Below are positions 20,086 through 64,000 of a DNA stretch of 64,000 nucleotides, in pieces. This stretch comes from Chiloscyllium plagiosum. Its lineage: Eukaryota. Numbering within the stretch: position 1 is the first letter of the stretch; every line of letters begins with the position of its first letter. The notes beneath the pieces are model-generated. The model was given only the letters and a program-made list of their open reading frames with translations, did no database searches and was not told where the DNA came from. Where the stretch lies: the NCBI RefSeq assembly GCF_004010195.1, contig NC_057719.1, positions 21,985,385-22,049,384 of the forward strand, written 5' to 3'. Made by a program: the position numbers and the translations under genes.

Positions 20086-20129
20086 CTTTTCTGCAATATG
20101 TATTCAACACAGCAGATAGTGAGGAAGGG

Positions 20130-30590: not shown

Positions 30591-31000
30591 TTTCCCTTGA
30601 TTCCCTTACTGATTAAAAATCTGTCTATCTCAGCCTCAAGTATTCTAATGGCACAACTTCTACAGCCCTCTGCTGTGAAGAATTCCACAGATTTGTTAGC
30701 ATATGAAAAATATCTTATTTGTTTCTGTCTTTAATGGATGAGCCCTTATTTGGAGACTATGCCCTTTATCCTAAACTCTCCCACAACGCAAAACAAGCTC
30801 CCCACATTGACCCTAAGAATCTTACATGTTTCAATATGGTCATATCTCATTCTGTTGAACTGTAATGAGTACAGGCCCAACTTTTTCCATCTCTCCTCAT
30901 AAGACAGTCCTTCCATGCCTGGGAACAACCCAGTGAACCTTCCCTGGCTGCCTGTAATGCCAGAATATCTTTATTTTGATAAGAGGACCATAAATGTTCA
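30590..31000 (-). mobile_element. CR1 3' fragment
   Basis: PGMEGLSYEERWKKLGLYSL and HIETCKIL. Confidence 0.8.
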
Positions 31001-31009
31001 CATGTTTGT

Positions 31010-33362: not shown

Positions 33363-33536
33363 CAGAACAACCTTGATTATCCAAATGAGTTGGGCGGGGA
33401 GTATTTTGTTCAGATAACTGAGAGTTCAGGTAACAGATTGTTTGGATAATGGACAGTGTTTTTACGGGACCTTGAGGTCTTGTTCGGATGATCCGAAATT
33501 CAGATAATTGATGTTCAGATAATTGAGGTTGTCCTA
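33363..33536. mobile_element. Tigger/pogo-type MITE
   Basis: TIR cagaacaaccttgattatc / gataattgaggttgtccta, TA on both sides and repeated ttcRgataat subterminal motifs. Confidence 0.75.
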
Positions 33537-33719
33537 TATTCATTTGTAATTTAATTTGCTAAAACTATGCAAATAAGTGTCTATATGGCTAGATTTGAAA
33601 AAAAAACTATTAACTTGAAAAAAATGTGTAAAGTAATGGAGGTTTTGATAAAGGACTCAAAGTATAAAACAAGTGACCAAATGGCTAAGTATGTTATGCT
33701 AGATAGATCAGCACTGCCC

Positions 33720-34110
33720 ACATCCCAATGAGAAACTTAAGAAGTCGTGATGGTGTAACATTTGGGCTGGAAAGGAAAAGATGAAACCAGCCCGAACGCC
33801 TTTGATAATACCTTCCAAACCTACAGCTTTCACCACCAAGAAGAATATAGAGCAGAATACACAAAGGAACAGCACCACCTACAAGGTCACCTCCAAGTGA
33901 CACAATGTCCCGATTTGGAATGATGCCATTTCTATACGACAGATGGGTTAAAACATTAAAATTCCCTTTCTAAAAGCAATGTTAGAATAGGGTGCAGGCT
34001 ACGCTTGAGAGACTGCAGTGGTTCAAGGAGGACCTTTACAATCAGCTTCCCGATAACAATGGACAAATGTGCAAGACTTGCCAGTGATACTGACAATCTA
34101 AGAATGAAGA
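33720..34110 (+). mobile_element. Old CR1/Zenon-like tail
   Basis: accttccaaacc...aacagcaccacctacaagg similar to 2340-2600. Confidence 0.5.
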
Positions 34111-34834
34111 AAAAGGTCCCATTCATTCTCTAGATCCTCATCTAGTGTTTCCTACTGAATTTTCTTTTGCCAACATGCAATCTTCACGGACATATGAAGA
34201 AAGACCACCTACGAGGGAAGACTGTTAAGCTTGTTAGAGTTTGTTTTTCTACTAAAATATGAAACACAATATTCATTTGTAAATATTGGGGAATGTTAAG
34301 GACTGAGATCAGATTATGAGAAACTGATGCCTGAGTAAACATTTTATAATCATTTTCTTGTACAATAAGTCAAGAGAAAGAACAGCTGGTGAGATTTTAT
34401 GATATATAGCTCGGGGAAAATGTGGAAATAAACAGAAATGGAAATTGTTGGAGAAACTCAGGAGGTCTGACAGATGCTTTGTTTTATTTTTGACGGATGT
34501 GAAAGCCTATAATCAAACAGAGTGTAGGTACAGCAAATCGATGTAATATATTGGCAAACAGGACTAATCCTACCAAATCAAAGATGTTGCCACATAAGTA
34601 TAATGGGGCAAGTTTTCCTGTTTAATGTTTTGATATGTAACATCATAAGAGTTGGAAACACAAAGGGAAAATTGGACAGAGATGACTGCATACCTTTAAA
34701 TACCATAACACTTACATTATTGATCAAAATCCAATGGACTGTAATAGGGGCATACAATTCTGTCCAGCTGATTTCCTCCCAACCTAAATGGTAAAACAAA
34801 GAGTTGAATTTTATTAATAGTCCAAGAAGATGGC

Positions 34835-35715
34835 CCAAGATGGCAGCAGAGTATGGCTCCTTTGCCAGATGTCATTCGCTCCAATCACTTTTCTTTTACT
34901 TTTTCTTTTTTTCCCTGTTTTTCTTTTTCTCTTACTTACTTTGTCCTGAGCTTGAATGGCATTGACAACGATGAGAGCCCATCACATGGAAATCGAGCAG
35001 ACAGAGTGTGGACCTCAAGTGATCTTGAGGCAGGTCTAGGGCGTGACCTCAGACGGGCCTACCATAGACCTCAAGCGGGGCCAGGGACTGGACCTCAGCC
35101 CAGCCTACCATGGACCGTGAGCAGGCCTAGGGCACAGGCCTTGAGCAGACCCAAGGCCTGGAGTCAGCAGCTGCTGCATTGGCAGAGGCGACGTCAGCAA
35201 GGTAGGCCCAGCGGTAAAAGATGGTGCCTGAGGATCAGCGACTTTGATGTTGGTTGGGTCTGGTGTGGACAACAGTGAAGCAGTGACAGAGAGATGGCAG
35301 TGCACATGTCAGTTGATGGTGCTGAGCTGGCTCAGGACTGATGGACTCTCTTCAAGCTATGTCTCTTTTTTTAAACTTTATTCTTAAATTATGCAAAATG
35401 GCACTGTTTCATGAAAACAAATGAAAGAACTTTTCGCTGTACAGGTAGTTCTTCTACAACACAATGGTTGCGTTATTGTGCAACCCCACATTAAAAAAAA
35501 ACGCACTTTAGAAAGAGTGCTTAAAGTGTTGGCAGTGTAATCACATTACAGCCAACAAATGTTTTAAAAGTTTGCACTGTAGAAACAGTGTCCCCATTTC
35601 GTCAATCACATTTCAGTGAATTTGTGTTGTTGATATGCGCGTTATCACAGAATGACCTGTGTTTTATTGTACTCTTGCTGTAAAATAGACGTGACAATAA
35701 AATCAAAATCAATCA
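34835..35715 (+). mobile_element. Non-autonomous LINE-tailed element (head caagatggc, tail gacaataaa) containing a MITE
   Basis: Homologous to 25620-26240. Its tail is split at a TA by the 35442-35659 MITE. Confidence 0.6.
35442..35659. mobile_element. Tigger-type MITE with central palindrome
   Basis: TIR caggtagttct...aac / gttatcacagaatgacctg with TA/TG flanks. Internal hairpin tgttggcagtgtaat-cac-attacagccaaca. Confidence 0.65.
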
Positions 35716-37149
35716 GCTCAGTGTCAATTTTGGGGGAGTTTCACAGAAGGTTTCTCTTTGAGTTCCAGTGAATTTGTTTAACCAATTCTATGCAGTTCGT
35801 TACCGTATATATGTTGCACTGCTCTGTGGTGCCCTGCTGGTGCAGTCATGCATGCAGCAATGGCAAAAGTGCAGCTGAAATCTCCAGCCAGCGGCGTGTT
35901 TAAAAGCCACAGACCAGGTCAAGCACTGCCAGCCAGGAGCTACCTTTCATAATGCACATGGTGGGAGAGGAATGGTAAAGAAACGCTTCTGAAGGCATGT
36001 AGGTGTGATGGCTGACACTTCATTGCAAATGCAAGCGCACAGTCATAAATATATTGCTAGATTATATCATTAGCTGTCTGATCGCCTGTTATTGTAACAG
36101 CACTACAAGAATCAATCTGCACAGCTTAACCCTCCTTTACACCATTCTACCTTAGAAACTTGTAAAAGGCAGATCGGCTCTTCCCAAATACTCATTCCAG
36201 CCTAACATCTTCTCATTGTTCAATGTGGGGTCATCACCTACTGGACAGACTTTATGTGGGTGAGAATATTCACTTTCATTCAACAAAAGCAAAAGAAAAG
36301 AAAAACAAACAAACAAAAAAAATGATGCATTTGTTTCTGAGAACAAACAAGGACCACTTAGGAATGAATGATGACTGCGCACAGCTCACATCTTTTGGAA
36401 TGTGCTATCAATTAACTCAATTATGAAGAAAGAGTTAGTGGAAAGGCAAGTGCTGAGGGTAACAATCGCAACACCTCCCCCTGAAAAACGTGATTTGAAG
36501 CAAGCTCAGGCCATGATAATCTAAATTTTTAATAGCTTGAAGCTTTTGTTAAGGAGTGGTCAAAGGATTCCATGCAAAACATTAACAAGCTTACAAGCTA
36601 ACTTTGAAATTTTACAGGTTCACTGTTTTGAGCACAAAACAGGATGGTTATTTGCTGCACAGAAGGTTGTAGTACTCCTCCTTTTATAAATGCAATTATC
36701 TTCTAACAGGAGCAAAATGTCAAGGACATCATTCCAAAAGGAAAAAAAACTGCACTTTATAATTTTTCTTGTAGTTCAGAAGTTCAGTCTTCAAACTTAT
36801 ATTGGGGGAAAATGCCAACTGGGAAACCATAACATATCACAGTGGGCTATGTTCACCTAGAAAAAGTAAGAAATGAAAGTCATAGTCATAGAGAAAGAGA
36901 AAATAAAGCAATCAAATCGATCCAGGATCACACCAAGTTGCAGAATCCTTCAATGTTTCAAGAGCAACAAATTGAATTTATTTAGCATCGATAACATAGA
37001 AACACATCCCAAGGCAATACATGGATCTGTGGTCAGTTGACAAAGCAACACTGAGCTAAAAAAAGTAGATGGTATCTTAGAAGAGGAGATGTGAAGGAAA
37101 GACTTACAATGTTATAGTGGTTTTCATAACCAGCGAGATACCAACCTAC

Positions 37150-37420
37150 TTTACAGATAATGTAATACTTTTCCAAGTGTCATCAATTTGGGAAACACAG
37201 CAGCTAATACGGACTCAGCAAACTCCCACAAACAGCAATATGAAAATCAGCAGATAATATTGTCTGTGTTGTTGTCTATGGAATAAATGTTGGTTCAAAC
37301 ATCTTCAATATTAACTCCCCTTTTATACATGAGAAAAGCTCCATTGTATCGTTCATATCCACTAAGTAGGCAGATGTGACACTAGCTTAACATCTCAGCC
37401 TAACGGCAGCATCCCTGACA
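37150..37420 (-). mobile_element. Deu-domain SINE (DeuSINE/SacSINE1-like) relic
   Basis: ggaaacacagcagctaat...cagcaaactcccacaaacagcaat...cagataat...aactcccc...ttaacatctca resembles the recalled Deu-domain consensus. Confidence 0.6.
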
Positions 37421-38044
37421 GGGGTATATTTCAAAAATATATTTGTACCCAGGGGACAGCTTTAGCAAAGGCAGTCAAAATGTTATGTTTTTCATAACTA
37501 CATTTCCATCCTCTCTTTTGTGCACTGCTCCATTGATTTATTTGCTAAGTCACATAAATCAATAAAGATATTGTCACTCTTTGCAATTATCCAAGTATCT
37601 TGTTTTAGTGGCTCTTGATGACTATCACTAGCAACATGGAAGTGTAGTGAATAGTTCAGGATGGCTTTTCAGTAACTAAATGAAAGAATGAAATCTTTAT
37701 GAACTGCTTTGATACAAGCAAACCTGTCTTCATTATTAACAACTATTGAGGGAACTCTAAAGCTGGTCAGTAGGATAACTTCATTATTTCTTGTTCCAAA
37801 GTACTCAGACACTACCTGACTGAAACTACCAGAAGCGGGAAAAAAATAAAATATTCTTAAGGAAACCGTATTCTTTTTATGCAAAATTGTAAAGGAGGCA
37901 ATGTGATTGCCTAATGCCTATGCTACTTTAAGCAATCCAAGAACAAAGAACAGTTCACACAGGATTAAGTCTTTCAACCCATCAAGCCTGCAGTGACACA
38001 AAACACTTTTCTAAACTAAAAATCTTTTGTTTCTATGTAGTCCG

Positions 38045-38645
38045 CATGTTGAGTATAGGAGTTGGGACGTCATGTGGAGGTTGTACAGGACATTGGTGAG
38101 GCCTCTTTTGGAGCACTTGGTGTAGTTCTGATCATCCTGCTATAGGAAGGTTATTATTAAACAAGAGAGGGTTCATGAAAAGATTTACCAGGATGTTGCT
38201 GGGAATGGACAGTTTGAGTTATGAAAATAGGCTAAATAGGCTGGGGCTTCTTTTACTTGAGCATAGAGATTGAGAGCTGATCTTATAAAGGTTTATAAAA
38301 CCATGAGGGGCACAGAGAAGGTGAATAGCAAAGGTCTTTTCCCTAAGGTGGGGGAATTCAAAACTAGAGGGCATAGGTTTAAGATGAGTGGAGAAAGATT
38401 CAAAAAAGACGTGAGGGCCAACTTATTTACACAGAGAGTGATTAGTGTGTATAATGAACTGCCAGAGGAAGTGGTAGAGGCAGATAGAGTTATGTTGTTT
38501 AAAAGACATCTGGATAAGTACATGAACCCAAAACATTTGGAAGGATGTGGGCCAACTACAGATGTGTGGGACTGGTTTAATCTGGGAACATGGTCAGCAT
38601 CGACTAGTTGGACTGAAGGGCCTGGTTCCATGCTGTATCGGTCTA
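38045..38645 (+). mobile_element. CR1 3' fragment (nested)
   Basis: RADLIKVYK...KTRGHRFK...FTQRVISVYNELPEEVV. Confidence 0.9.
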
Positions 38646-39380
38646 TTCATGGATCTGTCTTAAATGTTACTATTGTAACTGCTTCTACCATCTCACTTAG
38701 CAGTGCATTCCAGGCAATTACCACCCTCTGTAAAACGGTCCTGTCTCTCACATTTCCTTTGAAATTTCCTCCACTTTACTTTAAATCTAGTAATTGACAT
38801 TTGCACCCTGGCGAGAAGATTCTGACTATCCATTCTATCGATGCCTCTCATAATTTTCTGACCTTCTATTTAGTACCCCCTCTGTCTCCATTGCTCAAAT
38901 GAAATCAAACCAGGTTTGTCCAGTCTCTCTTCATAGCTAATACCCTCCAAAACCAGGCAACAAACTTTTCTGTTCCCTCTCCAAATCCTCCACATCCTTC
39001 TAGTAGTGTGGTGATCAGAATGTTAAATGTGGCCTAATTGACGTTGTATATAGTTGCAACATGACTTGCCAATTTTTCTACTCTATGCCCCAACCAATGA
39101 AGGCAAACATGCCATACACCTTCTTAACCATCATATCCACTTGTGTTGCCATCTTCAGGGCACTGTTGACCTGTACACCTACATCTCTCTACATATTAAC
39201 ATTTCTAAGAGTTGCGCCATTTACTGTATACTTCTCTCCTGCATTTAACCTTCCAAAATGTAGGGACTCACATTTGTTTGGGTTAAATTCCATCTGTCAT
39301 TTCTCCACCCAAGTCTCCAGTCGAATGTTACATTGTTGTGTCCTCTAACAATCCTCCTCACTATCCGGAACTCCCCTGTA

Positions 39381-39543
39381 CAGGTTATCAGAAGGACTCG
39401 GATGTGGAGTATTTCACTCGGTTCATCAAATTCCAGATAATCGAATGCCGAATAACATAGTTTAGCCAAGCATTGGACCTCGCGATCTTGCCGGATAATC
39501 TGATATTCAGATAATCGATTGCCGGTTAATCAAAGTTCTTCTG
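39381..39543. mobile_element. Tigger-type MITE related to 33363-33536
   Basis: TA-cag...ctg-TA ends and repeated gataatcga motifs. The left TIR is partly deleted. Confidence 0.6.
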
Positions 39544-40343
39544 TATTTGTGTCATCCACAAACTTACTAATCATACTAGCTATATTCTCCTCCAAATCAT
39601 TGATATATATTACAAACAATATGGGTCTCAACACAAATCACTGTGGACACCATTGGTCAAAAATCTCCAGTCAGAAAGATACCCTTCCACAGCTATTCTC
39701 TTTCTTCTAAGACCAAGCCAGTTCTGTATCCATCTTACCAGCACACCATGGATCCCTTGTGACTTTGTCTTCTGGGTCAGTCTGCCAGAAGAGACCTTGT
39801 CGAAGGCCTTGCTAAAGTCATATAAACAGTATCCTCCATGCTGCACTCATTGATCGTCTATGTCACTTAATCGAGTTTGTGAGACATGACATTGCCTAAC
39901 AATAATAAATCCATATTTTTCTAAATATGAGTAAATACTGTCTCTAAGAATCTTCTTCCGTAATTTCCCTGCCACTGACATAAAGCTCACCAGCCTGTAA
40001 TATCTCGGATTGTAAACTGTTGTCCTTTTTAAACAATGGAACAACATTAGCTATTTCCCAGTCCTCTGGGACATCTGAGAACTCAAAGATCTTTTATAGG
40101 ACCCCAGCAATTTCCTCCAACACTTCCCTCAGTACTCTGGGATAGATTCTATTACATTCTGGGAAGTTGTCTAACTTCATTCTTTTCAAAACACCCAAAA
40201 CCTTTTTTTATATTGACATGCCCTAGAATATAATAAACCCCTTTCTAGCCTCACTAGCCACCATATCCTTCTCCTTTGTGAATACCAATGCCAAGTATTT
40301 GTGAAGGACCTCACCCCTTTTTCCTGGCTCCACACATATATTC

Positions 40344-41183
40344 ATAGATAGAAGGACATAGATAAGCTGCAGAGCTGGGCTGAGAGATGGCAAATGGAGT
40401 TTAATGTGGAAAAGTGAGAGGTGATTCACTTTGGAAGGAGTAACAGGAATAAAGAATACTGGGCTAATGGTAAGATTCTTGGTAGTGTAGATGAGTAGAG
40501 AGACCTCGGTCTCCATGTATATAGATCCTTGAAAGTTGTCATCCACGTTGATAGGGTCGTTTAGAAGGCACACAATGTGTTAGCTTTTATTGGTACAGAG
40601 ATTGAGTTTCGGAACCACGAAATCATGCTGCAGCTGTACAAAACTCTGGTGCGGCCACACTTGGAGTATTGCGCACAGTTCTGGTCACCGCATTATAGGA
40701 AAGATGTGGAAGCTTTGGAAAGGGTGCAGAGGAGATTTACTGGGATGTTGCCTGGTATGGAGGGAAGGTCTTATGAGGAAAAGCTGAGGGACTCGAGGCT
40801 GTTTTCGTTAGAGAGAAGAAGGTTGAGAGGTTGATTTAATTGAGACATATACGATAATCAGAGGGTTATATAGGGTGGAGATTGAGACCCTTTTTGCTTG
40901 GATAGTGATGGCTAGCACAAGGGGACATAGTTTTAAATTGAGGGGTGATAGATACAGGACAGATATCAGAGATAGTTTCTTAGTCAGAGAGTAGTAGGGG
41001 TGTGGAACGCACTGCCTGCAACAGCAGTAGACTCGTCAAATTTAAGGGCATTTAAATGGTCATTGGATAAACATTTGGATGAAAATGGAATAGTGTAGGA
41101 TAGATAGGCTTCAAATTGGTACCACAGATGGGCATAACATAGAGGGCCGAAGGGCCTGTACTGCGCTATAATGTTCAATGTTC
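40344..41183 (+). mobile_element. CR1 3' fragment (nested, relatively young)
   Basis: WAERWQMEFNVEK and LYKTLVRPHLEYCAQFWSPHYRKD. tatattc occurs on both sides as a possible TSD. Confidence 0.92.
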
Positions 41184-42363
41184 TATATTCCCTCCTTTGT
41201 CCTAAAGTGAACCTTCACTTTCCCTTGCTACCCTCTTACTCCTTATAAATGTGTAAATTGCCTTGGAATTTTCCTTAATTCTGATGGCCAAGGACATTTT
41301 TAGCTCTCACAAATCCTTTTTTAAGTTCTTTCATGCCTTCTTTATATTCTTCAAGAGATCTGTATGTCTTCAGTTTCTTAAACTGCATGCCTGCTATTTT
41401 GTTTTTACCCAGCTCCCAATTTATATTGTCATTCAAAGTTCCTGATCTTGCCTTCCTTACCCTTAATTTTCACAGGAACTAGCTAGTCCTGAACAACTAG
41501 CCTTTGAAAGAATCCCACATGACAGGTGTGAAATTACCCTCAAACAGCAACTCGCAATCTATATTCCTCAGTTTCTTTTGTCTGTATTATCAATCTAATA
41601 CTTTCACCTGAGAACTACTCTTGTCCTTATCCATAAGTATCTTCAAACTTGTGGAATTATGGTCACTGTTCCCAAAATGCTCCCCCACCTGGCCAGGCTC
41701 ATTCCACAATACCCGAGGTCTAGTATAGCCCACTCCGAGTTGGACTATTTACAGATTGCTTCAAGAAATCCTCTTTGATGCATCTAACAAATTTCATGCC
41801 CAACTAAGTCCAAGGAACTAAAGGAGTCCCAATAATATAGGGCAATTTATAAATCACACACCACAAAAACCCCGTGGATTTTACATTCCCCCAATTTAAA
41901 CACTTAACTTCTGCACAATCCTTCCTCCTTTCCATAATGATTTTGAAACTTAGAGTTATGGTCACTATTCCCAAAACACTTGCCCAATAAAACTTCAACT
42001 ACTTGATCCTGATGCACTTAACAATTTCACCCCGTCTAATCCTGTCACACTGCACTGATCCCAATTAATGTTAGTAAAGTTGAAGTCCCCTACAGCTCTG
42101 GCTCTGTTTCTCACATACCTTTCTGTGATCTGTTCATTCGCCTATATATCTGCTACTTTATCTCCCTCTGACTGTTGAGACGCTGATATGATAATCCGAG
42201 CCATGTAATCAACACATTTTTTTAAATTTCTAAGCCGTACCCTAGAACATCCTCCCTCATTATTGCAGTAATGCATTGCCCCTTCCTGTCTTGCATCCCT
42301 TCCATCCCACCTGAAATTTCTATACCTTGAAATATCAAATTGTCAATCCTGCCCTTCCGTCTA

Positions 42364-42497
42364 TCCTGGTGAAAGGTTCCAACCCGAAACGTTGACTCCC
42401 TTTCTCCTCTGATGCTGCTTGACCTGCTGTGCTTTTACCAGCTCCACTTTTCATCCACTCTGACGTTCCAGCATCTACAGTCCTCACTAGCTCCACT
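42364..42497 (+). mobile_element. Solo PLE terminal repeat with hammerhead remnant
   Basis: ctggtgaaaggttccaacccgaaacgttgac. Flanks ctgcccttccgtcta (42349-42363) and ctgcccttccttcaa (42498-42512). Confidence 0.75.
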
Positions 42498-44306
42498 CTG
42501 CCCTTCCTTCAACTAATAATTGCATCAATGTCAGATTCCCACATGCTGAGCAGTGCTCTGAATTCATCCACCTTACCAATCAAGCTCCTTCTATTAAAAT
42601 GGATACAATTTAGCTTTCCAAACTCCCATGTTTTTTAACATGCTTGTCATGTTGTCTTTTATCATTACATTTAAACAGGTTTCTTTAGAACACAGTCAAA
42701 CACAGTCCTTAAAACCACATGCAGTACATTTTCTTTCTTAAAAGGAACATCTGCCTCACTGTGTTATCTCAGCAGTTACATGCAACATGCTTAAGGGACC
42801 ATGCTCATAATATCATCATCATATTAAAGCTTAATGTATGAATATATGGTAAGGGAATAAAGGTCAGAGTTTCCATCTTACTGAGTCCTCTCTCTTGCAT
42901 TATGAAAGGCTGAAGGAGGTATGTGCTAGCTTGCACCCAAATTGTTTAGTTTGAGCCCAGACACAGAGTGTCTGTGTTTTTAATGAACACATGTAGATAC
43001 AAGCTGCTGTAATAGAAGTAATTGTTAATTTAGAGAGCTAAAGTGTCTTTCAATTATACTCACAAATAGATCCTTCTCGAAAGAATGAATGAATACATCA
43101 CTAGTTTTTCTTATATTCATGGATTTGGGTCTGCATTTCCACTGTTGTACGAGTAATAAATTTCTTTTTGTCTCAAATATGATGAATTTTGACAAATGTA
43201 AATCTGTGTTTTCTAGCTCAGTGCTCACAGTTTAAATAAATAGCCTTATGTATGTACATAATTTATACCTTGTGGCAAGTCAGTAGAGGTTGCTCCCTCC
43301 TCTTCTATAACAACAAATTTCTTACCTCTTTCTGGATTATTTTGAACATAAGACATAAGCATGGTTATCTTTTGTTCAACCTTGAGATTTGGAGAACACT
43401 TTTGAAAATAAGCAGTTGGAAAGGAAAGTGTGATTTATGACTGAAGTACTTCGACTCTTGGGGAAAAAAAAGTTCCCTATTCTCCTTCTTGAAATGGGAA
43501 AAGGATGATAAGTATTTTAGATATTTAAAAAATGCAAAAATAAACTTGTAAAGGGATAATTGCAGAGAAATTAAGTCCCAATTTTCCTTTTCCTTTGGCA
43601 TATAAGCTTTGATCATGTTCTCTTGTCACTGGTCTCAATCTCATCAAATTATTTTGATAATTTACTTTTACACTCCTATAATTCTCTGCAATTATGCCTC
43701 TATGAGTTTGTTAACATCACATTCCAGTGTCTAACACTGCACAGGGGAAAAACAGCTGAAGCTCTCCAATATCAGGAATATATAAATTTGTTCAAAGATT
43801 ATATATCTTGTGGGTTTGAATTTCACGTTTATTTTTGTACAATTTTAACATAAACTTTGTTTAAAGGACTACCAATTTACTGAAAAGTACACCTCTTTCA
43901 AACCATCATTTTCCACCCTGTATTAAAAAGTCATGCTTAATTAAAAGTCATACCTGCTGGATCAACACTCATGTTGTTTATTTCTGCTTTGGAAGGCAGC
44001 AATTCAATTTACAGTTTTGAGACTTTGGGTAAAGGTGGAGTTCTATTGCGATCGTGAAAGTATTAATAATTGCATTAATTTAGGAATTGAGGAATCTCTG
44101 CTCTGAAAATAACCAGATTATTCATTAAACTAAGATCTTTCCTTGCAAAAAAAAAATTCAAGTGTCCACTTTATTGAGATGTAATTGATTTGTTTTTAAC
44201 TGTTTGGTGAAGCATGCCAAATCTAGCCGGGCCCAAGGTATTTCCAATTACACATTAATGTTTTGTAACTAAACATGTGAAATTCAACAGGGAGGGACAG
44301 TGTAAA

Positions 44307-44490
44307 TCTGATGAAGGGTTTCTGTCTGAAATGCCCCGACTCTTTCACTCCTCTGATGCTGCTTAATCTGCTGTGCTTTTCCAGTGTCACACATTTCGAG
44401 TCTGATATCCAGCATCTGCAATCCTTACTTTCTCCTCTCCACAGATGCTGCCAAACCTGCTGAGTTTTTCTGGTAATTTCTGGTTTTGTG
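44307..44490 (+). mobile_element. Two adjacent PLE terminal repeats (families A and C)
   Basis: ctgatgaagggtttctgtctgaaatg... followed by tctccacagatgctgccaaacctgctgagt. Confidence 0.65.
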
Positions 44491-45129
44491 ACTATATACA
44501 TGTTCACGGTCCTCTTCCCACCATTTGCAATACAAGTTTCCTGAAGGAAACTCCACAATTGGAACAAAGAAGCTCTAATTATTCAGGTACAGAGGTACTA
44601 TTTTTAGCAAGTCTATGTTCACAAAGAAGACCAGCATTGAACTAATTCTGAAGGGGTATAGGATATCATTTAAAATGTTTTAAGTCAAGGATGGGAAAGA
44701 AACAACATAATCAGGACTGTTGCTCGAGTGTTTCCTTTGGATCATGTCTAAAATGTGACAGTTTATGAACAAGTGTCTCTTGAAAGAGAGCTCCTTATTA
44801 AAAGGTGTATGTTAGTCCATGTATATAGTTTAATCTTTCCAAATGAAGTTCAGTCAAATCTCATTCAATTTTATCAATACAATTTAAACAGTCAGCAATA
44901 TCTACCCACAACATTCAATCAACAAATTGGTTTGTATGCAAGATATTTTGCTATTTTCTATAATTTTCAACTAATTTGATTAACTCCACGTGGTAGCAAG
45001 AAATCACTGAAGACATTGGGAGCTTGTAAATATTTTATGGGCTCTGACAACATTTGCCAATAGCATTGAAAAAATTGTGCGACGGAATGAGGTGTGTACA
45101 GCTGCAACACGCCCATCTAACTGGCTGTG

Positions 45130-46475
45130 GTATATCCTGTCTATAGAATGCAGGATAAATCCAAACAGCCAATACTGCTTTATCAGTCTATTCTGCATCT
45201 TCAGCAAAGTGATGAAAGAGATCAGCAACTGTGCCACAAGGATAAATGCTCAGTGGAGATCAGTTTGTTTTCCTTCAAGGCCACTTAGCTCCTGATCTCA
45301 GTACAGCCTTCATTCAAACATGAACAAAGAAGCTGAACTCCAGAGGAGGGGTGAGTGCGACTGCCTTTGACAGCAAGGTTGCATTCAACTGAGAATGGCA
45401 GTGAGGTGCCCTAGCAAAACTGAACTCAATGGAAATAAGGGGGGAAACTCTTTGCTGATTAGAGCCATAGCTAGCACAAAGGAAGATGGTTGTGGTTGTT
45501 GGAGGTCAACGATCTCATGCTCAGAACATCACTGCAGGAGTCCCTGAAGGTAGTGCCCTAAATTCAACCATCTCCAGTTGCTTCAGCAGTGAGTCCCTCC
45601 ATCATAAGGTCAGAAGTTGAGAGGTTCATTAACTATGACATAAATGTTCAGTACCATTCACTGTTCCTCAGATACTGAGGCAGTCTGTGTTCCTAAAGAG
45701 CAAGACCCAGAAAGCATCAGATTTGACCTGATGAGTGACATGTGACATTTGTATTGGACAACTGTGAGAACATGACCATCTCCAACAAGAGGGAACCTAA
45801 CACCGCCTCTTGACATTAATGACATTGCTAATACAATACCCTACTATCAAAATCCGATGTGTTGCACTGGCCGGATATTGAACTGTGCCATCCATATGCA
45901 TACTGTGGCTGCAAGAACAGGTCTGTGCTGTGTAACTAATTTGCTTCTCCCCAGTGTCTGTCCACTATGTACAAGACAGAAGTCAGGAATGTGATGGAAT
46001 ACTCTCCATTTGTCTGGATAGATCAACTCCAAGAACACTCAAGGTGCTCGATTAATTCCAGAACAAAGCAGCCTGCTTGATTAATACCCTATCCAACACT
46101 TTCAAATTCACTGCCTTCACCACTGAAGCACAGTGTCAGCAACGTGTACCATTCACAAGATACACTGCGGTAATTCCTATGACAAAAATTTCAAAGTATG
46201 CAAACTCAACTACTAAGAAGAACAAGTGCAGAGGCAGAACAAGAATACCATCACCTTCAACTTCCCCTCCAGATCACACACCATCTTGACTTCAAATTAT
46301 ATCACCATTCATTCACTGTCACTGGTTCAAAATCCTGGAATACCTTTCCCACCAACACTGTTAGTGTACCTGGACTTCCAAAGACTGCAGCAATTCAAGA
46401 AGGCACTTCTACCAACTCCAGGATAATTAGGAATAGTTAATAAATACTGGCCTATCCAATAATCAATGAATAAAT
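45130..46475 (+). mobile_element. CR1/Zenon-like LINE RT and tail relic
   Basis: VRVTAFDSKVAF, MVVVVGGQ, ITAGVPEGSALNSTI, YKTEVRNVMEYSPFVW. Confidence 0.8.
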
Positions 46476-49199
46476 GAAACAATGAAGGTAGAAGTCGAAG
46501 AAAAAAACTATTGAATTTCTACAGATAAAATGTTTCAATTCAGATTTCCTCCCAAGACACTTTTTAAAAATTCACAACACATGAAAAAAAACTTCGACAG
46601 GTAAACCTGCACTCAGTGTAATCTGAACCTTTGTTTTATATGTTCAGTACATTAAGAATAGCAAACAGCTTGACGGAATGAAAATGCCTCTTTTATTTTA
46701 CTGGATAATGGGTTGAATTCCTATATGTTTAAGACTATTTTAGGAGAAGGCAATCTGCAATATACAATATATTTTGTAATGTATTCGACTATTAAACAAG
46801 TTTCCCCATGATTAGAGTTATATGCAGTATAAGCAACTATTGAATAGGTTAATCTTGCGCAAGGAGTCTAAAGTTAGATTGTAATGAATTAATCAAAGAA
46901 AACCATCAGACAACTCCCTTAAAATTGTTCTGGTAAACATTCTTTATTTTGAGTAGAAAGAAGTCTTCTGGAGACATTTATGAGGCCATTGTAGTTTGTC
47001 ATGCTAGGGATTTTAGGTTGTTTTAGAAGAATGAGCTGGATAGGTCAAATTGTTTCCTGCAGAACATATCTTTGTGATCTTTCAATGGAAGTACTTCTCA
47101 GAAGAAAATAAGCAATTTTGTTCCTCAGTGAAAGCAGATGATAATCTTTGAGCAGCTTACCATAAGTAGAAGTTTGGAGAAGTTAATATCCCCAAACACA
47201 ATATGAAGCCATAGTTGGTAGTTCTTCAGATTACATATCCACAATTCTACTTTGGGCTAAATATCATTTGTTTAAATTGTTCTCAAGGGTCCATCCCAAT
47301 GAGTTTGACAGTAAGCCTATCAAAATAATGAGGTATCGAGCTAACGACATGATAAAAACATGCTCCTAGAGGCACGAATGGTACAGAAGGCTGGGAAGAT
47401 GGATATCACTCTCACCCAGGGAGCAGAAAATTTTTGAGGACTACCTCAAGAGGAGTTTGAGAGAATGAGGTCACTGTTATGGGGTGTCAATTACCAGATT
47501 GTGATCCTGAGGACTTTAACACAGCACTATAGGAATGCTAATGACCTTATACAGGTACTTAATGTCACTGAATGCAATTTCACATAATATTCCAACTCAG
47601 CAAAATACTGTCTTCACATTCAGCTCGATTCGTACATCCGCGACTTACACCTTAGCATTCCCTTGTGCTCAAGACTAATGACTAACATCCAGATACACCC
47701 CATCTCACCCTTCCAGAGCTGCCAGTCTTACAATGAGGCTATTCCTCCTGCTTGCACATACTCCTGCCATTCAGCTTTGGTACATGTAATGCAAGCAGTC
47801 ACATTGTGACCTCACTGTTGAACAAGGAGTATGTAATATGAGGAAACAAAGCAAAGTCAGTGGAGGATGAGAATGTCTTCATTCACTGAGCACTATGAGT
47901 TAGGTGACTTTCATCTCCCACTATGTGCTCATCCTGCATCACGCAAGCTACTGATGTTGTGACTACTGACCTCCTGCATCATATATAACACAGAAGCTGG
48001 AATTCCAGAGTAATCCCAGACCTGATGCCTGGAAAAGACAGTGAAAAGTAAATTTACCTCTAGTTGGTTCCTAGATCCTTTAAGAGCCCATCCTGAACCT
48101 CACTCGGGCTCTTCAAAGATTGAAGAATATCTGTACAGAATCTGTACGATCCAGCTTAGGAATTTCGGCATTACATCCACCAGTCTGCTTTGTTATGCCA
48201 GTTAGAACTGGATACAGGAGATGTATATCTGTGCAGCCAGGAACAGTATGTGCTCTTGGGAATCAATGGTAGGTTCCTGTACTTCCACTTGAGAGACAGA
48301 GATATCCAATTGAATTTGGAGCTTAGTGCTCTCGAAGCAGCCCTGAAGATAACACAGTGGTATAAATAATTTCCAGTGAAGATGAAAGTCTTTTCTCCCT
48401 GCCTCAATAAATTCCATTGGCGGCCATACTTAGGAACAGTTAAAGCGATGTCTTGCAGATTCATTTAATAAGCAGTACATGCAATTCATGCCTGGTGTAC
48501 CAATCCAGCAATCAAAAAATTAACATGTCAAAATATTGTTTTTCTTTCACGGGGACGATATGGCAGCCAAAAAGATATCTCAGCAAACATTTTAACAACA
48601 GTGTGGCTTGCATTTTCACTACAAATCCTAAAGCTGCTGTTTCAAAACTAGGCACAAACAAAAGGGACCATAATTCCTTCATGACACCTGCATCTACAGG
48701 AATAAGAACTGAAAGGTGAAACATTTTAAAAGCACATCAAATTATTTTTATTGTTCAGAAGGTTTCGATAGCACAGTGATGGAGTTACAAGCCCATTAAG
48801 GTTTCCAAGCAAAAATGGGCCACATTGATGTATTATGTACCCTTTGCAATCAGCTACCTTATGTAGGTAAGATTAATCAGGTTCAGAATAGTAGAATATT
48901 CCAAATCAGGATGAAAATACAGCAAGGTTGGGGGAACCTGATTAAAATGCATCATTGATAAGAAGGAAGTGAAGAATTTTAAGACTGTGTTTGAACTTTC
49001 TGGGTTGTTCTGTAAAAGGAAACAAGATAAATGGGGTAGCAATGAAAAACCAAATAATGAGGTGAATAACCTTTTGCTGTGAAACTTGCTTGAATGTCCT
49101 ACTTTTATCATGAAAACGCATTTCACATAACAAATACGTTGAGCAATAATTTTCTGTGACAGGACATCTAATGATTTCTGCTTCTAGTTAGACTGGCAT

Positions 49200-51200
49200 A
49201 ATTGGTTTTGTTCTTTTTATTATTCATTCAGATAATATGGGCTTTACTAGTTAAATGAGTGAAGGTTAGTCATCCTCATTTGCCCTTGAGAAAATGATGG
49301 TAAATTGCCTTCTTAGATAATGCAGTCCATTTGTTGTAGGCACAAGCACATTCTTTCACGGTCGCTGGGTCAAAATCCTGGAATTCCCTCTCTAATGGCA
49401 TTGAAGTCAACCCATGGCAGATGGACAGCAACTCACCACCTTCTCAAGGGCAAACTAGGGACGGGCAATAAATGCTCCCAGCCAACGATGCTCACATACC
49501 ACAAACAAAAAAATGTTTTAAATATGCTGTTTTGGAAGGAATTTCAGCACTTTGACCCAAATTTCACTTAGGAATCGATAACCGTGCAGCAAGGAATACA
49601 AAGACATCCAGGACCTAAGTGAACAAGGCAAGCAAATGTGTATGCCTTTCTCCAATCAGATCTTTTGTTCTATTTCTGGGATATGGGCATTGCTGCCAGC
49701 ATTTGTTGCTTATCCCTGGTTGCCCTTCAGAAGGCGGCATTGAGTTGTCACCTTGAACTGCCACAGTCCATTTGGTGTAGGCACACCCAGAATGATGCTA
49801 GAGAGGGACCAAGTGACACTGAAGAAATGCTGACATATTTCCAAGTTAGGGTGGTCGATTGGCTTGGAGGGGAACTTGTAGCTGGTGGCATTCCCATTTA
49901 TCTGCTTCTAGATTGAAGGATTATGGAAAGAACAGTGCAAGGACAGAGAAAGATATATCAATTGGAGTAGCAGAATTGAACGCCAAATCAGGCACGGAAT
50001 GAGAACTAAAGAGACAGCAAGAAATATCAAATTGAGCGATAAAGGCCAGAATGACGAAAACGGTTTTTTGAAGTTTGCAACAATGAAAACCCAAATGATT
50101 AAGAACTCAAACTTGGGATGGTTGTGTGTGTGTGTGTACATGTACAGATGGGGATGTTTGTGGAGGTGGACAATGCCATTGCTACAGGGATAGCTATAGT
50201 CAACTGAAGGGCTCGACATGACAAAGCCCATCCAAATACCACACCCAATACTGAGGTATTGAGATGTTTGCCAGGGCTTAATGAGCAGTTTGCCCTCGTG
50301 ACAGAGGGACCACTTCACCACTGGTAAAATGCTATTGACAATAGGAAGATGAGGTTTATAGCAAATAAAATGGGTTGATTAGCTTCTGGAAGAGCCATCT
50401 ACCACCTTGCTATTGCTGGCAAGGTGGCATGACATCAGGAAGACAATGGGCACCTTAGCCTTCGCTGCAGGAGTTTTATGGGTTCCACCACCCAGCGAAC
50501 TTGGACTGAAGGAAACTTATTCACACATTCATTGAGGGATAAGGAGATGGATTATGACTTACAACAGTGATGGTAAATCAACAACCACGGATTACTGAAG
50601 CAATATATATCCTTTTTTTCTTTATTACTTCATGTAGTATGGGCATCACTTCTAATCTAAGAATTTTAAAAAGTTTATATATTGGGTGTGGTTACGGTTG
50701 GCTCAGCCAGCATTTATTGCTCATCCCTAATTGCCCATCAAGCAGTTAAGAGTCAACCTATGATAGTGTTAGGGTTAGGATTAGTGGTCTGGAGACACAT
50801 CTGCAAGGACAAGTTGGACCGAAAGGTCTCTTTCCTTGCTGTACAGCTCTCTGACTCCGTGACTCTATGTAGGTAAAGATAGCAGATTTCCTTCCCCAAA
50901 GAAAATTAATGAACAACATGGAGTTTTACAGTCATCGACAGTTGTCACCACCAGCTGCTTTTTATCGAATTCAAATTTTGCCACCCTCAATGACAGGTTT
51001 TGAAACCATATCCCCAGAACATCAGCATGGGGTTTGGAATACAGCTATGCCACCTCCTTCCACCAAGTTGCCCATGTGTTTCCCAGCTCAAATTACTCTT
51101 GAATAATGTGATTTGCCATAGCCATTTCAGAGGGCAGTTAAGAGATAACCAGATTGCTGTGGTTCTGACATCTCATGTCAGCCAGACAAGTTAAAGGATG
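49200..51200. mobile_element. Cluster of short CR1/Zenon-like tail fragments in both orientations
   Basis: ttctcaagggcaaactagggacgggcaataaatg at about 49440. Reverse copies (gccagcatttattg...) at about 49690 and 50705. Confidence 0.5.
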
Positions 51201-55360: not shown

Positions 55361-55753
55361 CCATAGGACTTACAGCACCCTGCTCACAATGTAGGATGCA
55401 GATTGCACCTTATCTGCTATGTCCAAGGAACCATGCAGGGCAGCTCCAGACTGACAGTGCTTGTCCAGGTGCACAATGGAATGTTAAATATGCCACCAAA
55501 TAACAATGAATATAAGAGTTTAGTAAGTTACAGTGAGAAAATTGGCCGGGTTTTATAGTGAGAGTCACTCCACCAACTCACGATAATATACACTGAACCA
55601 AAAATGTGCAAGATTTTACCCTTTGTGTTCTATTGGACTCTGAACCAAGGTCTGACCTCATCCTCATTGTTGCTCAAACTGTCTTCATAATATCTGTTGA
55701 AACTTTATTGCTGGAACAGCACAGCAGGTCAGGCAGCATCCAGGGAACAGGAG

Positions 55754-55789
55754 ATTCGACGTTTCGGGCACAGGCCCTTCTTCAGGAAT
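55754..55789 (-). ncRNA. Minimal hammerhead ribozyme motif, intact
   Basis: Minus strand reads AUUC-CUGAAGA-A-GGGC(CUGU)GCCC-GAAA-CG-UC^GAAU. Confidence 0.8.
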
Positions 55790-55940
55790 GAGCAGAGAGT
55801 GTTCAGCAGGAGAAGATAAAAGGTAGGGAGGAGGGACATGGAGGAGGGGCGTTGGAAATGTGATAGGTGGAAAGAGGTAAAGGTGAAGGTGATAGGTCGG
55901 AGTAGGGTGGAGGCGGAGAGGGCAAGAAGAAGACTGCAGG

Positions 55941-56633
55941 NNNNNNNNNNNNNNNNNNNNNNNNNNNNNNNNNNNNNNNNNNNNNNNNNNNNNNNNNNNN
56001 NNNNNNNNNNNNNNNNNNNNNNNNNNNNNNNNNNNNNNNNNNNNNNNNNNNNNNNNNNNNNNNNNNNNNNNNNNNNNNNNNNNNNNNNNNNNNNNNNNNN
56101 NNNNNNNNNNNNNNNNNNNNNNNNNNNNNNNNNNNNNNNNNNNNNNNNNNNNNNNNNNNNNNNNNNNNNNNNNNNNNNNNNNNNNNNNNNNNNNNNNNNN
56201 NNNNNNNNNNNNNNNNNNNNNNNNNNNNNNNNNNNNNNNNNNNNNNNNNNNNNNNNNNNNNNNNNNNNNNNNNNNNNNNNNNNNNNNNNNNNNNNNNNNN
56301 NNNNNNNNNNNNNNNNNNNNNNNNNNNNNNNNNNNNNNNNNNNNNNNNNNNNNNNNNNNNNNNNNNNNNNNNNNNNNNNNNNNNNNNNNNNNNNNNNNNN
56401 NNNNNNNNNNNNNNNNNNNNNNNNNNNNNNNNNNNNNNNNNNNNNNNNNNNNNNNNNNNNNNNNNNNNNNNNNNNNNNNNNNNNNNNNNNNNNNNNNNNN
56501 NNNNNNNNNNNNNNNNNNNNNNNNNNNNNNNNNNNNNNNNNNNNNNNNNNNNNNNNNNNNNNNNNNNNNNNNNNNNNNNNNNNNNNNNNNNNNNNNNNNN
56601 NNNNNNNNNNNNNNNNNNNNNNNNNNNNNNNNN
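55941..56633. other. Assembly gap
   Basis: Run of N at the centre of an inverted PLE pair. Confidence 1.
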
Positions 56634-57183
56634 TCTCCAAGTCCCCAAAGGAAACTTCCATATCCGCCACAGATTCACCTGCCCCTCCACCCACATTATC
56701 TACTGCATCCGCTGCAGCCGGTGTGGCCTCCTCTATATTGGGGAGACAGGCCGCCTACTTGCGGAGCGATTCAGAGAGCACCTCTGGGCCAACCCAATCA
56801 CCCTGTAGCACAGCATTTCAACTCCCCCTCCCACTCCACCGAGGATATGCAGGTCATTGGACTCATCCACCGCCAAACCACAACAACGCGACGGTCGGAG
56901 GAGGAGCGTCTTATCTTCCGACTGGGGACCCTCCAACCGCAGGGGATGAACTTGGACTTCACCAGTTTCTTTCTCCCCCCTCCCCCCACCTTGTCTCCGC
57001 CGGGTCCCCCCAGCCCGGCGCCGCCTTCCTGACCTGCAGTCTTCTTGTTGACCTCTCCGCCTCCACCCTACTCCGACCTATCACCCTCACCTTGACCTCT
57101 TTCCACCTATCACATTTCCAACTCCCCTCCTCCAAGTCCCTCCTCCCTACCTTTTATCTTCTCCTGCTGAACACTCTCTGCTC

Positions 57184-57219
57184 ATTCCTGAAGAAGGGCC
57201 TGTGCCCGAAACGTCGAAT
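57184..57219 (+). ncRNA. Minimal hammerhead ribozyme motif, intact
   Basis: AUUC-CUGAAGA-A-GGGC(CUGU)GCCC-GAAA-CG-UC^GAAU. Stem I AUUC/GAAU, predicted cleavage after 57215. Confidence 0.8.
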
Positions 57220-57382
57220 CTCCTGTTCCCTGGATGCTGCCTGACCTGCTGTGCTGTTCCAGCAATAAAGTTTCAACTTCATAATATCTGTCTATACCCT
57301 TATTCTAATTGCTTCCAAAACCCCCATCCATTCCATATTACCATCAAATCTGACCACTCCAATGATCTGCAATTATTAAATA

Positions 57383-60572: not shown

Positions 60573-62180
60573 ATGATGGGTGCATTTGAATAAAGGAGCT
60601 ACGATATCCGCTGAAAAAGTGGAGAAGGAAATTTGAAATGACAGTTGAACATTTAATTTGCTCCCTAATTAAATTTCCAAACAAATGGGTGATTTTAGTG
60701 AGTTTGTGCCTTGGTGGGTATACCATTTTAAAATGGGAGACAGGATGATAAAAATGAGGAACATCAGGAATGAGAACCCCAGAATTAGGTGCTATCTATT
60801 ATTTTTAAAGTTTGGAAAGTCTTTCAAACCCCACAAAATTCCTGGCCGTTATCTCCCATTCGTAAATGCTGCCTTTCCATGGGGAGCTGTATGAATGATT
60901 TAAAGAAAATATAAAAGCAAAATGCTGCAGATGCTGGAAATCTGAAACAAACACAGGGAATGGTTGAGAAACTCAGCAGGTCAGTCAGCCTCTCTGGAAA
61001 CAGAAGGAGTTTCTCCAGCATTCTCAAGTTCAAATAATTTAAACCCTTTTTGAGGCAACTGTAGGTAGCTTGTCTGTACCAAGAATCCCATTGTTTAATA
61101 TTATCCCATTTCCAACACTGACTTTATTAAACAAAGGCTACCCTTTGAATGGTAACCACTTTACGTCTGTTTGCCACTCTTCCTAAGAGTGTTCCCTTCT
61201 TTTTTCAAATTCAACTTTTGGGAAATAGTCTCAGTGGCTGAGTTAGCACTTATTGTCTGTCCCCAGTTGTCCTTGACAAGGTGGTCATGAGCCACCTTCT
61301 TGAACTGTAGCAGCCCTTTTGCTGTGGGAAGATCCATAATGTCATCAGTCAGAGAATTCCAAGATTTTGACACAGCAATACTGAAAGGACAGTGATATGG
61401 CAGGATTGTGAGTGTTTGGTTAGAATTCACATGTGGTAGTGTTATAGATGATAGTGGTTGTGGGTTTTGCTAGGTGGTGTGTAAGGATCTTTGATGATTT
61501 TCTGTGGTACATCTCATAGATTTTACACACTGATGTGACAGACAGTCAGTGGCGGAGGGAGATGTTTGTGGATGTGTTGTCAATCAAACAGGCTTGGATG
61601 GTGTCAAACTTCATAAGTATTGTTGAAGCTGCATTCATTCAGACAAGTGATGACTATTCCATCAAACTCCTCTGTTGACACTTCCAGATGTTGAACAGGC
61701 TTTGTGGTGTCAGGTGGTCAGTTATTCATTGTAATATTTCAAGCCTCTAACCTGTTGTTTTAGCCACTTATGTGGTATTTATGTGGTTAGCTCAGTTCAG
61801 TTTCTGGTCAATGGTAACTTCCAGGATGTTGTAAATTGGGGATTCGGTGAAGTTAACACTATTAAGTCAAGAGGTGATGATTAGATTGTCTCTTATTGGA
61901 GATGGTCATAGCTTGGCATTTGTGTAGTGTGAATGTTACTTGCCACTTGTCAGCTCAAGCCTAGGTGCTGTTCAGACCTTGTTCCATTTAGATATGGTCT
62001 GCTTTAGTATCTGAGGAGGCATGAACGGTGCTGAACATTCTGCAAACATTGGCAAACATCATCAGTTTTGATCTTATGCTGGAGGGAAGATCATCAATGA
62101 AGATGGATGAGCCCAGGACATTACCCTGATGAACTCCTGCATAAATGTGCCAGAGCTAAGATGACTGATCTCCAACAACC

Positions 62181-63177
62181 CTCCTTCGACTGACTGAACT
62201 GGTCCTCACCCTGAACAACTTTTCTTTCCAATCCTCCCACTTTCTCCAAACAAAAGGAGTAGCCATGGGCACCCGCATGGGCCCCAGCTATGCCTGCCTC
62301 TTCGTAGGGTATGTGGAACAATCCATCTTCCGCAACTACACTGGCCCCACCCCCCATCTTTTCCTTCGCTACATTGATGACTGTATCGGCGCTACCTCGT
62401 GCTCCCACGAGGAGGTTGAACAGTTCATCCACTACACCAACACCTTCCACCCCGACCTCAAATTCACCTGGACAGTCTCGGACTCCTCCCTCCCCTTCCT
62501 AGACCTTTCTGTTTCTATCTCAGGCGACCGAATCAACACGGACATCTACTACAAACCAACCGACTCCCACAGCTACCTAGACTACACCTCCTCCCATCCT
62601 GCCCCCTGTAAAAACGCCATCCCATTCTCCCAATTCCTACGTCTCCGCCGCATCTGCTCCCAGGAGGACCAGTTCAAAATACGTACAACACAGATGGCCT
62701 CCTTCTTCAAGGACCGCAATTTCCCCCCCGACGTGGTCGACGGTGCCCTCCACCGCATCTCCTCCACTTCCCGCCCCCCCGCCCTTGAGCCCCGCCCCTC
62801 CAACCGCCACCAGGACAGAACCCCACTGGTCCTCACCTACCACCCCACCAATCTCCATGTACAGCGCATCATCCGCCGTCACTTCCGCCACCTCCAAACA
62901 GACCCCAGCACCAAGGATATATTTCCCTCCCCTCCCCTATCAGCTGTCCGTAGAGACCACTCCCTCCGCGACTCCCTTGTCAGATCCACACCCCCCACCG
63001 ACCCAACCACCACTCCCGGCACCTTCCCTTGCAACCGCAGGAGGTGCAACACTTGCGCCCACACCTCCCCCCTCACTTCTCTCCAAGGCCCCAAGGGAAA
63101 CTTCCATATCCGCCACAGATTCACCTGCACCTCCACCCACATCATCTACTGCATCCGCTGCAGCCGGTGTGGCCTCC
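62181..63177 (+). mobile_element. Young PLE fragment with uninterrupted reading frame (RT C-half, thumb, Cys-rich linker, start of GIY-YIG)
   Basis: Frame is open from 62181 and includes ORF 62265: GVAMGTRMGPSYA, FLRYIDDC, LPFLDL, YYKPT, CNRRRCNTC, IIYCIRCSRCG. It is truncated just before the YIG motif. Confidence 0.95.
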
Positions 63178-63390
63178 ATGTTTGGATCATTGGAATCTCT
63201 GCTGGGGTAGAATTGACGTGCATAAGAAGGATGGATTGTACCTGAATTGGAAGGTGTCTAATATCCAGGCAGGGAGATTTGCTAGTGCTACTCAGGAGGC
63301 ATTAAACCAGTGAGGGAGTGGGGGGTAAACCTAAAGAGATAGTGAGAGAAGAGGTATGTCTGAGGCTGGTACAGTTGAGAAGTTAGACAG
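63178..63390 (+). mobile_element. CR1 ORF1 (SGNH esterase-like) C-terminus and inter-ORF fragment
   Basis: LDHWNLCWGRIDVHKKDGLYLNWKVSNIQAGRFASATQEALN* resembles the DGLHLN block that ends CR1 ORF1. Confidence 0.75.
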
Positions 63391-63392
63391 TC

Positions 63393-63428
63393 ATTCCTGA
63401 AGAAGGGCATGTGCCCGAAACGTCGAAT
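63393..63428 (+). ncRNA. Minimal hammerhead ribozyme motif, intact, in PLE terminal repeat 63391-63488
   Basis: AUUC-CUGAAGA-A-GGGC(AUGU)GCCC-GAAA-CG-UC^GAAU, predicted cleavage after 63424. Confidence 0.8.
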
Positions 63429-63865
63429 CTTCTGTTCCCTAGATGCTGCCTGACCTGCTGTGCTGTTCCAGCAATAAAGTTTCAGCTTTGATCTCCAACA
63501 ACCACATATAAACCATGAAATTAGATATTCATTCACCAACTCAAATTTCTAAGTGCAATGTGATGCCCCAGCTATGACTTCAACCAGTGAAGAGCCTTTT
63601 CCTTGGTTCCCATTGAGCCCAGTTTTAGTGGACACATGGTCAAATGTGATCTTTTCATCAAAGGCTGTCAACTTCATCTCACCTCTGGAATTCAACTCTT
63701 TTGTCTGTGTTTGAACCAAAGCTGTGATGATGTTAGGAGCTGGGCATCACTGAGCAGGTTATTGCTGAGCAGCTGCTGCTTGATAGCACTGTTGTTGACA
63801 CCTTCCATCACATTACTGATGATCCAGAGTAAACTGATAATGATTAGCTGAGTTGGATTGGGCTT

Positions 63866-64000
63866 GATTTGGAGATACCGGTTTTGGACTGGGGTGTACA
63901 AAGTTACAAATCACACAACACCAGGTTATAGTCCAACAGGTTTAATTGGCAGTACTAGCTTTCGGAGCGCCAGTCCTTTATCAGGTGGTTGTGAGTACAC
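63866..64000 (-). mobile_element. Family-B PLE terminal repeat (cut by the window end)
   Basis: Same tail and arm as 19907-20000, with a decayed hammerhead at about 63954-63988. Confidence 0.8.

Follow-up and report, generated by a model that had tools for sequence, protein, structure and literature searches.

The window analyzed here, 64,000 nucleotides (nt) of DNA from the shark Chiloscyllium plagiosum, contains an insertion at 62166..63503 in which three pieces of retrotransposon sequence are enclosed by one target-site duplication (TSD). These are the coding end of a Penelope-like element (PLE), a 213-bp filler that apparently derives from the first open reading frame (ORF1) of a CR1 element, and a PLE terminal repeat with a predicted hammerhead ribozyme. 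The insertion is a real feature of the assembly, and the evidence supports a PLE-made insertion with a true TSD. The favored reading, to which we give a probability of about 0.45, is that the insertion is a 5'-truncated copy of a pre-formed, non-autonomous chimera, composed of the end of a PLE reverse transcriptase (RT) gene, a decayed scrap of CR1 ORF1 and the hammerhead repeat, that was copied in trans by an intact PLE. This reading is preferred because it explains a decayed, multi-copy filler and a generic 5'-end junction with the fewest special events.

Structure of the insertion

The duplicated sequence, TGATCTCCAACAACC, is 15 nt long and occurs exactly twice in the window, at 62166..62180 and 63489..63503 on the plus strand, and not at all on the minus strand. 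The repeat extends no further on either side, so the exact 15-bp TSD claimed in the preliminary description, which was made from the sequence alone, stands. By chance, about 2e-6 such 15-nt repeats would be expected when both ends of the insertion are allowed to vary by 20 nt. The sequence between the two copies is free of gaps. The target appears to be an old, decayed stretch of a long interspersed element (LINE) on the minus strand (61950..63700), split by the insertion, which we take to be RT-coding from its motifs; both flanks read VVGD across the TSD. Four of 24 sequencing runs were compared with 61900-63800 at 90% likeness, namely the DNA contigs of X1, X2 and X6 and the RNA reads of X21, a single-cell poly(A) library of which about 2 in 100 reads were read. 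The individual pieces and joints cited from these runs belong to a set of 24 pieces, out of about 117,780, and 15 joints, out of 210. In that set, other copies of the target repeat connect 62179/62180 to 63568/63679.

The PLE coding region occupies 62178..63177 on the plus strand. It includes the C-terminal part of the RT, with YIDD, the thumb and linker, and the start of the GIY-YIG endonuclease domain. The stop-free frame of 357 codons (62172-63242) holds YIDD, CNRRRCNTC and IIYCIRCSRC. Compared with 56634-56731 of a sister insertion in the same window, 94 of 98 nt are identical, up to 63177. At that point the sister continues into LYIG, and the frame departs from the PLE after the first base of the codon preceding YIG. 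The earlier claim of a PLE frame of about 1 kb that breaks just before YIG is therefore upheld. Identity of the PLE part to three other long copies in the window is 64-71%. The match to RVT_1 is weaker than the Pfam cut-off (E 0.006), and in the Atlas the PLE protein groups with eukaryotic clusters that carry HTH_animal, RVT_1 and GIY-YIG (0.91-0.96). The N-terminal part of the RT is absent and the endonuclease is cut; judged from these truncations, the copy is not an autonomous, endonuclease-containing PLE but a dead derivative. A CX2-5CxxC motif of the linker that separates RT from endonuclease has been defined for Neptune and Nematis and is absent from Penelope and Poseidon (PMC8557442). 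A zinc-finger-like CX4CxxC motif of this type is present at 63030..63056 on the plus strand (CNRRRCNTC in translation), which assigns the copy by motif to the Neptune/Nematis type.

The PLE family is very abundant, with 29,612 to 49,450 contigs per DNA run aligned to the 1.9 kb compared. Of the 33 PLE-part differences among 40 of 188 rows, four of the five that are near-private to this copy change the protein, against 11 of the 28 others (p 0.15), which weakly suggests drift of the template in the absence of selection. The sister insertion (55683-57291) belongs to the same young family, has inverted terminal arms and contains a gap of 693 N. It is likewise bounded by an exact 15-bp TSD (55683-55697 and 57277-57291). 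In a survey around 10 hammerhead cores of the window, a 15-bp TSD was found for two, both of them the young copies. The best repeats around older, shorter copies (9-20 nt) resembled chance or other repeats and were rejected as TSDs.

The filler (63178..63390, sense orientation on the plus strand) occupies the place of 450 bp in the sister, in agreement with the earlier observation that the expected PLE stretch is absent. It consists of an SGNH-esterase ORF1 end and a post-stop stretch. In the second frame, 63179-63310 encode the last 44 codons of ORF1; a stop codon (63311-63313) and a further 77 nt follow, with neither an ORF2 3' end nor a LINE tail. The 44 codons gave 17 phmmer matches among 1.84 billion representatives (best E 6.6e-9). 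Fourteen are esterase-type ORF1 ends with 51-60% identity, and the other three are unrelated repeat proteins. One relative, P0008, matches the structure of the ZfL2-1 ORF1 esterase (PDB 4C1B, E 5.6e-30), and in another, P0003, this ORF1 end is fused to an AP endonuclease. The named relatives come from ray and skate. The preliminary description had assigned the filler to the end of a CR1 ORF1 esterase; the protein and structure matches support an origin from an ORF1 esterase. The donor is likely a CR1 element, because chondrichthyan L2 elements are reported to be without ORF1 and vertebrate CR1s have or had one (PMC13343379). The label draws on this clade distribution and on the fused relative, no ORF2 being linked to the filler itself.

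The ORF1 piece is likely decayed. It differs from the majority of the 14 relatives at 13 of 42 residues, seven of which occur in none of them. The catalytic triad of the esterase has been described (PMC3905857). The catalytic DxxH reads DGLY in the filler, with Tyr in place of His, and DGLH in 10 of the 14 relatives at the His column. From its codons, the filler appears to be a catalytically dead remnant, out of frame with the PLE, and so no new protein is implied. Neither blastn nor tblastx found a donor elsewhere in the window, of which 0.5 kb is seen to the right of the insertion; a weak match at 7633 was rejected as a donor, since it is a CR1 ORF2 end and thus a different region. Pfam returned one unrelated weak match for the 45-aa filler alone, and neither the filler nor the read-through junction peptide had any match in word-indexed protein searches. 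Exact look-up of three ORF versions found none of the three, and DNA patterns had no match among metagenome and viral contigs, as expected for animal DNA.

The PLE terminal repeat (pLTR) and the start of its tail extend over 63391..63497 on the plus strand, with AATAAA at 63473-63478. From 63391 onward, 94 of 98 nt are identical to the repeat of the sister. A minimal type I hammerhead can be read at 63393-63428, with the core CUGANGA, stem II, GAAA, a UH site and stem I; the stems fold, and the cut is predicted after 63424. The repeat thus begins at hammerhead stem I, as had been noted before. Rfam gave no matches over the window, the hammerhead included. An extension of stem I by pairing of filler nt 63386-63390 with 63432-63436 appears in the best fold and was rejected (z = -0.7 against shuffles).

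The predicted cut is separated by 34 nt from the junction between filler and repeat (63390/63391), which is upstream of it, and ribozyme cleavage was for this reason rejected as the cause of the junction. Any role of ribozyme cleavage loses weight from this distance and from the position of the junction at the common 5' end of the family's short copies, or stubs. Thirteen non-self matches to the last 270 nt of the sister occur in the window. Seven, among them this insertion, begin at positions equivalent to 57181-57187, seven nt in which stem I starts; four extend further upstream and two begin further inside. One X1 contig joins PLE position 62683 directly to 63395, and in X21 the unaligned ends ahead of 63393 are mixed in 74 RNA reads (agreement 0.45), alongside 87 with the normal upstream sequence. 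This contig and these reads indicate that the hammerhead-side junction is generic. TCATTCC near 63392-63393 is presumably initiator-like. The common 5' end of the stubs is probably the 5' end of a transcript. An internal promoter with an initiator has been reported for Penelope (PMC2377424), and initiator-like motifs have been noted in rotifer pLTRs (PMC3846280). The X21 reads on 61900-63800 show no pile-up of starts or ends.

Older stubs with a 5' junction at the start of stem I lie at 6602-6798, 8950-9097, 9692-9816, 7633-7984 and 29237-29334. Two of the five are fold-back joints, one is joined to a C-rich run, one abuts a CR1 ORF2 end and one is solo. One X6 contig returns from 63426 to 63393 with two letters between, a tandem of the 5' part of the hammerhead whose end lies 2 nt beyond the predicted cut. 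In X21, 59 RNA reads exit the repeat after 63484, about 12 nt past AATAAA, and continue with a few letters followed by an A-run (agreement 0.58). At some locus, this repeat may provide a poly(A) signal; the A-run could also be genomic.

At the 3' junction, contigs of the family match through 63497 before they continue into their own tails (12 in X1, agreement 0.99; 25 in X2, agreement 0.87), and hence nine nt of the TSD (63489..63497, plus strand) are also PLE sequence. The suspected homology to the target at the priming end is thereby substantiated. With 40 possible end points, 9-nt sharing has a chance of about 2e-4, for a copy that was chosen post hoc. Other PLE copies have loose ends before 62178 (27, 26 and 21 contigs), which leaves three shared nt at the 5' end, the last three of the left TSD copy (62178-62180). 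The same reading of the sister insertion gives three and two shared nt at its two ends. This single 9-nt case suggests that pairing with the target can help priming. In vitro, copying by the Anolis Poseidon PLE PAc begins inside the RNA, which is uncleaved, at a site without homology to the cut DNA (PMC11167929). Joining of 5' ends by annealing has been described for LINEs (PMC4245944).

Probable empty site and depth of the filler

X1 record 1 covers 61937-62180 and is followed by two unaligned letters. X1 record 8 and X2 record 16 begin at 63489, preceded by 11 and 12 unaligned letters, respectively. An empty allele predicts a first-base mismatch on both sides. The points at which the alignments stop are consistent with an empty site in X1 and X2; for X6, no empty-site piece is among those listed. 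Since contigs of two of the three DNA runs fit an empty site, the insertion is likely polymorphic and recent, and at least two of the three DNA samples would lack it. The TSD would in that case be a true duplication.

An exact match to the filler stretch 63295..63386 (plus strand, no differences) was found as one contig of 92-93 nt per run in X2 (63295-63386, depth 476) and X6 (63295-63387, depth 545). Relative to five presumed single-locus depths per run, chosen by the analysts, these values amount to 38-74 times in X2 and 20-62 times in X6, as ratios of contig depth rather than of copy number. At 63348, a letter other than that of the window prevails among related contigs (75-88% of depth). 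The remainder, which is the share of the window letter (505 in X2 and 545 in X6), was taken as equal to the depth of the exact contig, so the filler seems to belong to a tight group within a larger, more diverged family. These depths suggest a multi-copy state for this stretch, which is part of the filler only; its linkage to the PLE parts is presumed. Residual depths at 62778 and 62946 were considered as a sign of a shared haplotype and discarded, being inconsistent between runs. A variant with a G-run one G shorter at 63320-63325 has a depth of 504 in X2 and 363 in X6, with three contigs each, which suggests that the filler sequence has another branch at high copy.

Possible origins of the chimera

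A filler that is decayed and nevertheless multi-copy needs a carrier, and this filler sits inside a PLE insertion. According to the pre-formed-chimera reading, a hammerhead repeat would earlier, and elsewhere, have become attached to a dead copy of CR1, at the usual starting point of the family's short copies; for this, a normal stub insertion would suffice, or a single run-off followed by a jump. PLE coding sequence could then have been joined to the CR1 piece by one template switch or deletion, and transcripts ending in the repeat would have been copied many times. At the present site, the nicked target would have paired with nine nt of the repeat tail, the complementary DNA (cDNA) would have run for 1.3 kb, and its 5' end would have been closed through the 3-nt microhomology. 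Every one of these mechanistic steps is a reconstruction. Host spacers ahead of the 3' pLTR and mobilization in trans by pLTRs have published precedent (PMC3846280). A fuller picture is rather unlikely. In it, an active Neptune-type shark PLE makes short, strong-stop-like cDNA that reaches from the tail to the transcript start, and then jumps; one product of this kind, with the CR1 ORF1-esterase scrap instead of the endonuclease, would have become a still-mobile, non-autonomous family of tens of copies that prime on target microhomology. LINE ORF1 modules would thereby have a living route into Penelope elements.

Several observations weigh against a pre-formed chimera. The copies of the filler can also be accounted for by a young CR1 lineage whose ORF1 is degenerate; in CR1-group elements, loss of ORF1 is frequent and the frame may not be needed (PMC13343379, PMC3905857). 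The relatives of the filler themselves differ from their own majority at 8-15 of 42 residues, which weakens the case for decay. By the tool's own warning, contig depth is no copy number, and no exact filler contig is among the pieces listed for X1. The exact contig ends 3-4 nt before the hammerhead junction and so may belong to ordinary CR1 copies, and a related contig with 10 differences (X6 record 22) passes 63391 on other sequence. At 62946, within the PLE part, the depth of the window letter is at most 165 in X6, less than 545. Finally, no contig or read among the 24 pieces and 15 joints seen bridges 63177/63178 or 63390/63391.

The preliminary description had both template switches occur within this insertion. 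Such a one-off event is somewhat unlikely, and is weakened by the exact match of part of the filler to sequence at tens of times single-locus depth. Copying would have been primed in the tail, have run off at the 5' end of the RNA after about 105 nt, have proceeded over 213 nt of CR1 and have jumped to a PLE RNA in the endonuclease region. It is consistent with a junction at the family's common 5' end, with at most one shared nt at the hammerhead-side junction (a related contig matches through 63391) and with the direct 62683-63395 joint in one X1 contig, and internal initiation near the RNA 5' end has been shown in vitro for a Poseidon PLE (PMC11167929). RNA or DNA of a multi-copy CR1 lineage with a degenerate ORF1 is a plausible donor, because loss of ORF1 is common in the CR1 group. 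However, that donor must be apparently decayed and at the same time present in tens of near-identical copies, two internal jumps must fall in a single event, and the window, with 0.5 kb seen on the right, holds no donor.

It is improbable that the insertion is an assembly mosaic, in which collapsed repeat paths of other loci would have supplied the interior of a real PLE insertion. Against this stand a perfect TSD, a sequence without gaps, and empty-site contigs whose ends fall exactly on the edges of the TSD. The hammerhead junction falls at a biologically recurrent point, and the junctions would most likely still exist somewhere in the genome even if they had been misplaced here. What speaks for a mosaic is that the window has three N-gaps, one of them in the sister copy, that the inner junctions are unbridged among the pieces listed, and that two of the three DNA runs appear to be without the insertion allele. 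A double-strand break after insertion, with loss of 450 bp of PLE and repair by 213 bp of CR1 DNA, is very improbable. Internal deletions are reported in Penelope copies (PMC3846280), and CR1-group elements make up 22-34% of elasmobranch genomes, such that random filler would often be CR1 (PMC13343379). Yet the insertion is apparently young enough to be polymorphic, which leaves little time for a later break, and the right breakpoint coincides with an end point linked to retrotransposition.

Relation to known elements

The unit works like PLEs with captured DNA and like non-autonomous derivatives, yet it is neither an autonomous PLE nor a retrozyme. In the rotifer Adineta vaga, Pen1_Av and Pen3a_Av likewise have foreign DNA directly before the 3' pLTR inside a TSD-bounded unit, and unrelated sequence lies between solo pLTRs with TSDs; template jumps were proposed (PMC3846280). 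The spacers of A. vaga are 0.9-1.5 kb long, unique to each copy and placed mostly after an intact ORF. The shark filler, in contrast, replaces the endonuclease and 3' region, comes from the ORF1 of another retrotransposon and is apparently multi-copy.

Copying by PAc begins within the tail, on the downstream side of the hammerhead, and continues across the uncleaved ribozyme, to which the present insertion can be likened (PMC11167929). The PAc start site is non-homologous to the cut DNA, whereas nine nt are shared here and the linker motif is of the Neptune/Nematis type. The minimal hammerheads of PLE repeats have the same type I layout, a 4-bp stem I, a palindromic remnant of stem III and many solo truncated copies (PMC4209133); in the parts covered, that report describes neither a fixed 5' end at stem I nor cargo. 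Non-LTR retrozymes likewise bear hammerheads, and are described as non-coding units mobilized by PLE proteins and proposed to be PLE derivatives (bioRxiv 10.64898/2026.07.22.740005). According to the same source, they are tandem arrays of short units, whereas the shark unit is one dispersed 1.3-kb copy with a coding remnant. It carries one hammerhead, and retrozymes are recognized by at least two tandem units. Chimeric retrocopies of the U6/L1 type also contain two retroelement-borne sequences in the same orientation within one TSD pair, and they join the 3' end of the second RNA. In the shark unit, both upstream partners are joined internally, without a CR1 tail.

Non-autonomous PLE partners are known in Chlamydomonas (PMC9977147), and esterase domains have been reported in some PLEs (PMC3905857). 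No description of a PLE with a CR1 ORF1 piece was found in the titles and abstract starts of the open-access papers listed, a scope outside which subscription papers and Repbase lie. The insertion bears on how PLE terminal repeats are built and how cargo is picked up. Being young and polymorphic-looking, with an apparent empty site, a 9-nt priming homology and a junction at the family's common 5' end, it offers predictions, open to counting, for the points at which copying begins, stops and jumps. If the chimera forms an amplified family, a vertebrate PLE would be spreading the debris of another retrotransposon in trans. This would be one way for esterase modules to be exchanged. Should it have arisen only once, it adds another fossil of a process already described.

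Two further repeats were observed in the window. A diverged tandem array at its start (1-1693) has about 75-85% self-identity at many offsets. A palindromic repeat family of about 150-200 bp, with copies 88-97% alike at 3591-3812, 19900-20089 and 63863-63989, is unrelated to the hammerhead repeats by blast.

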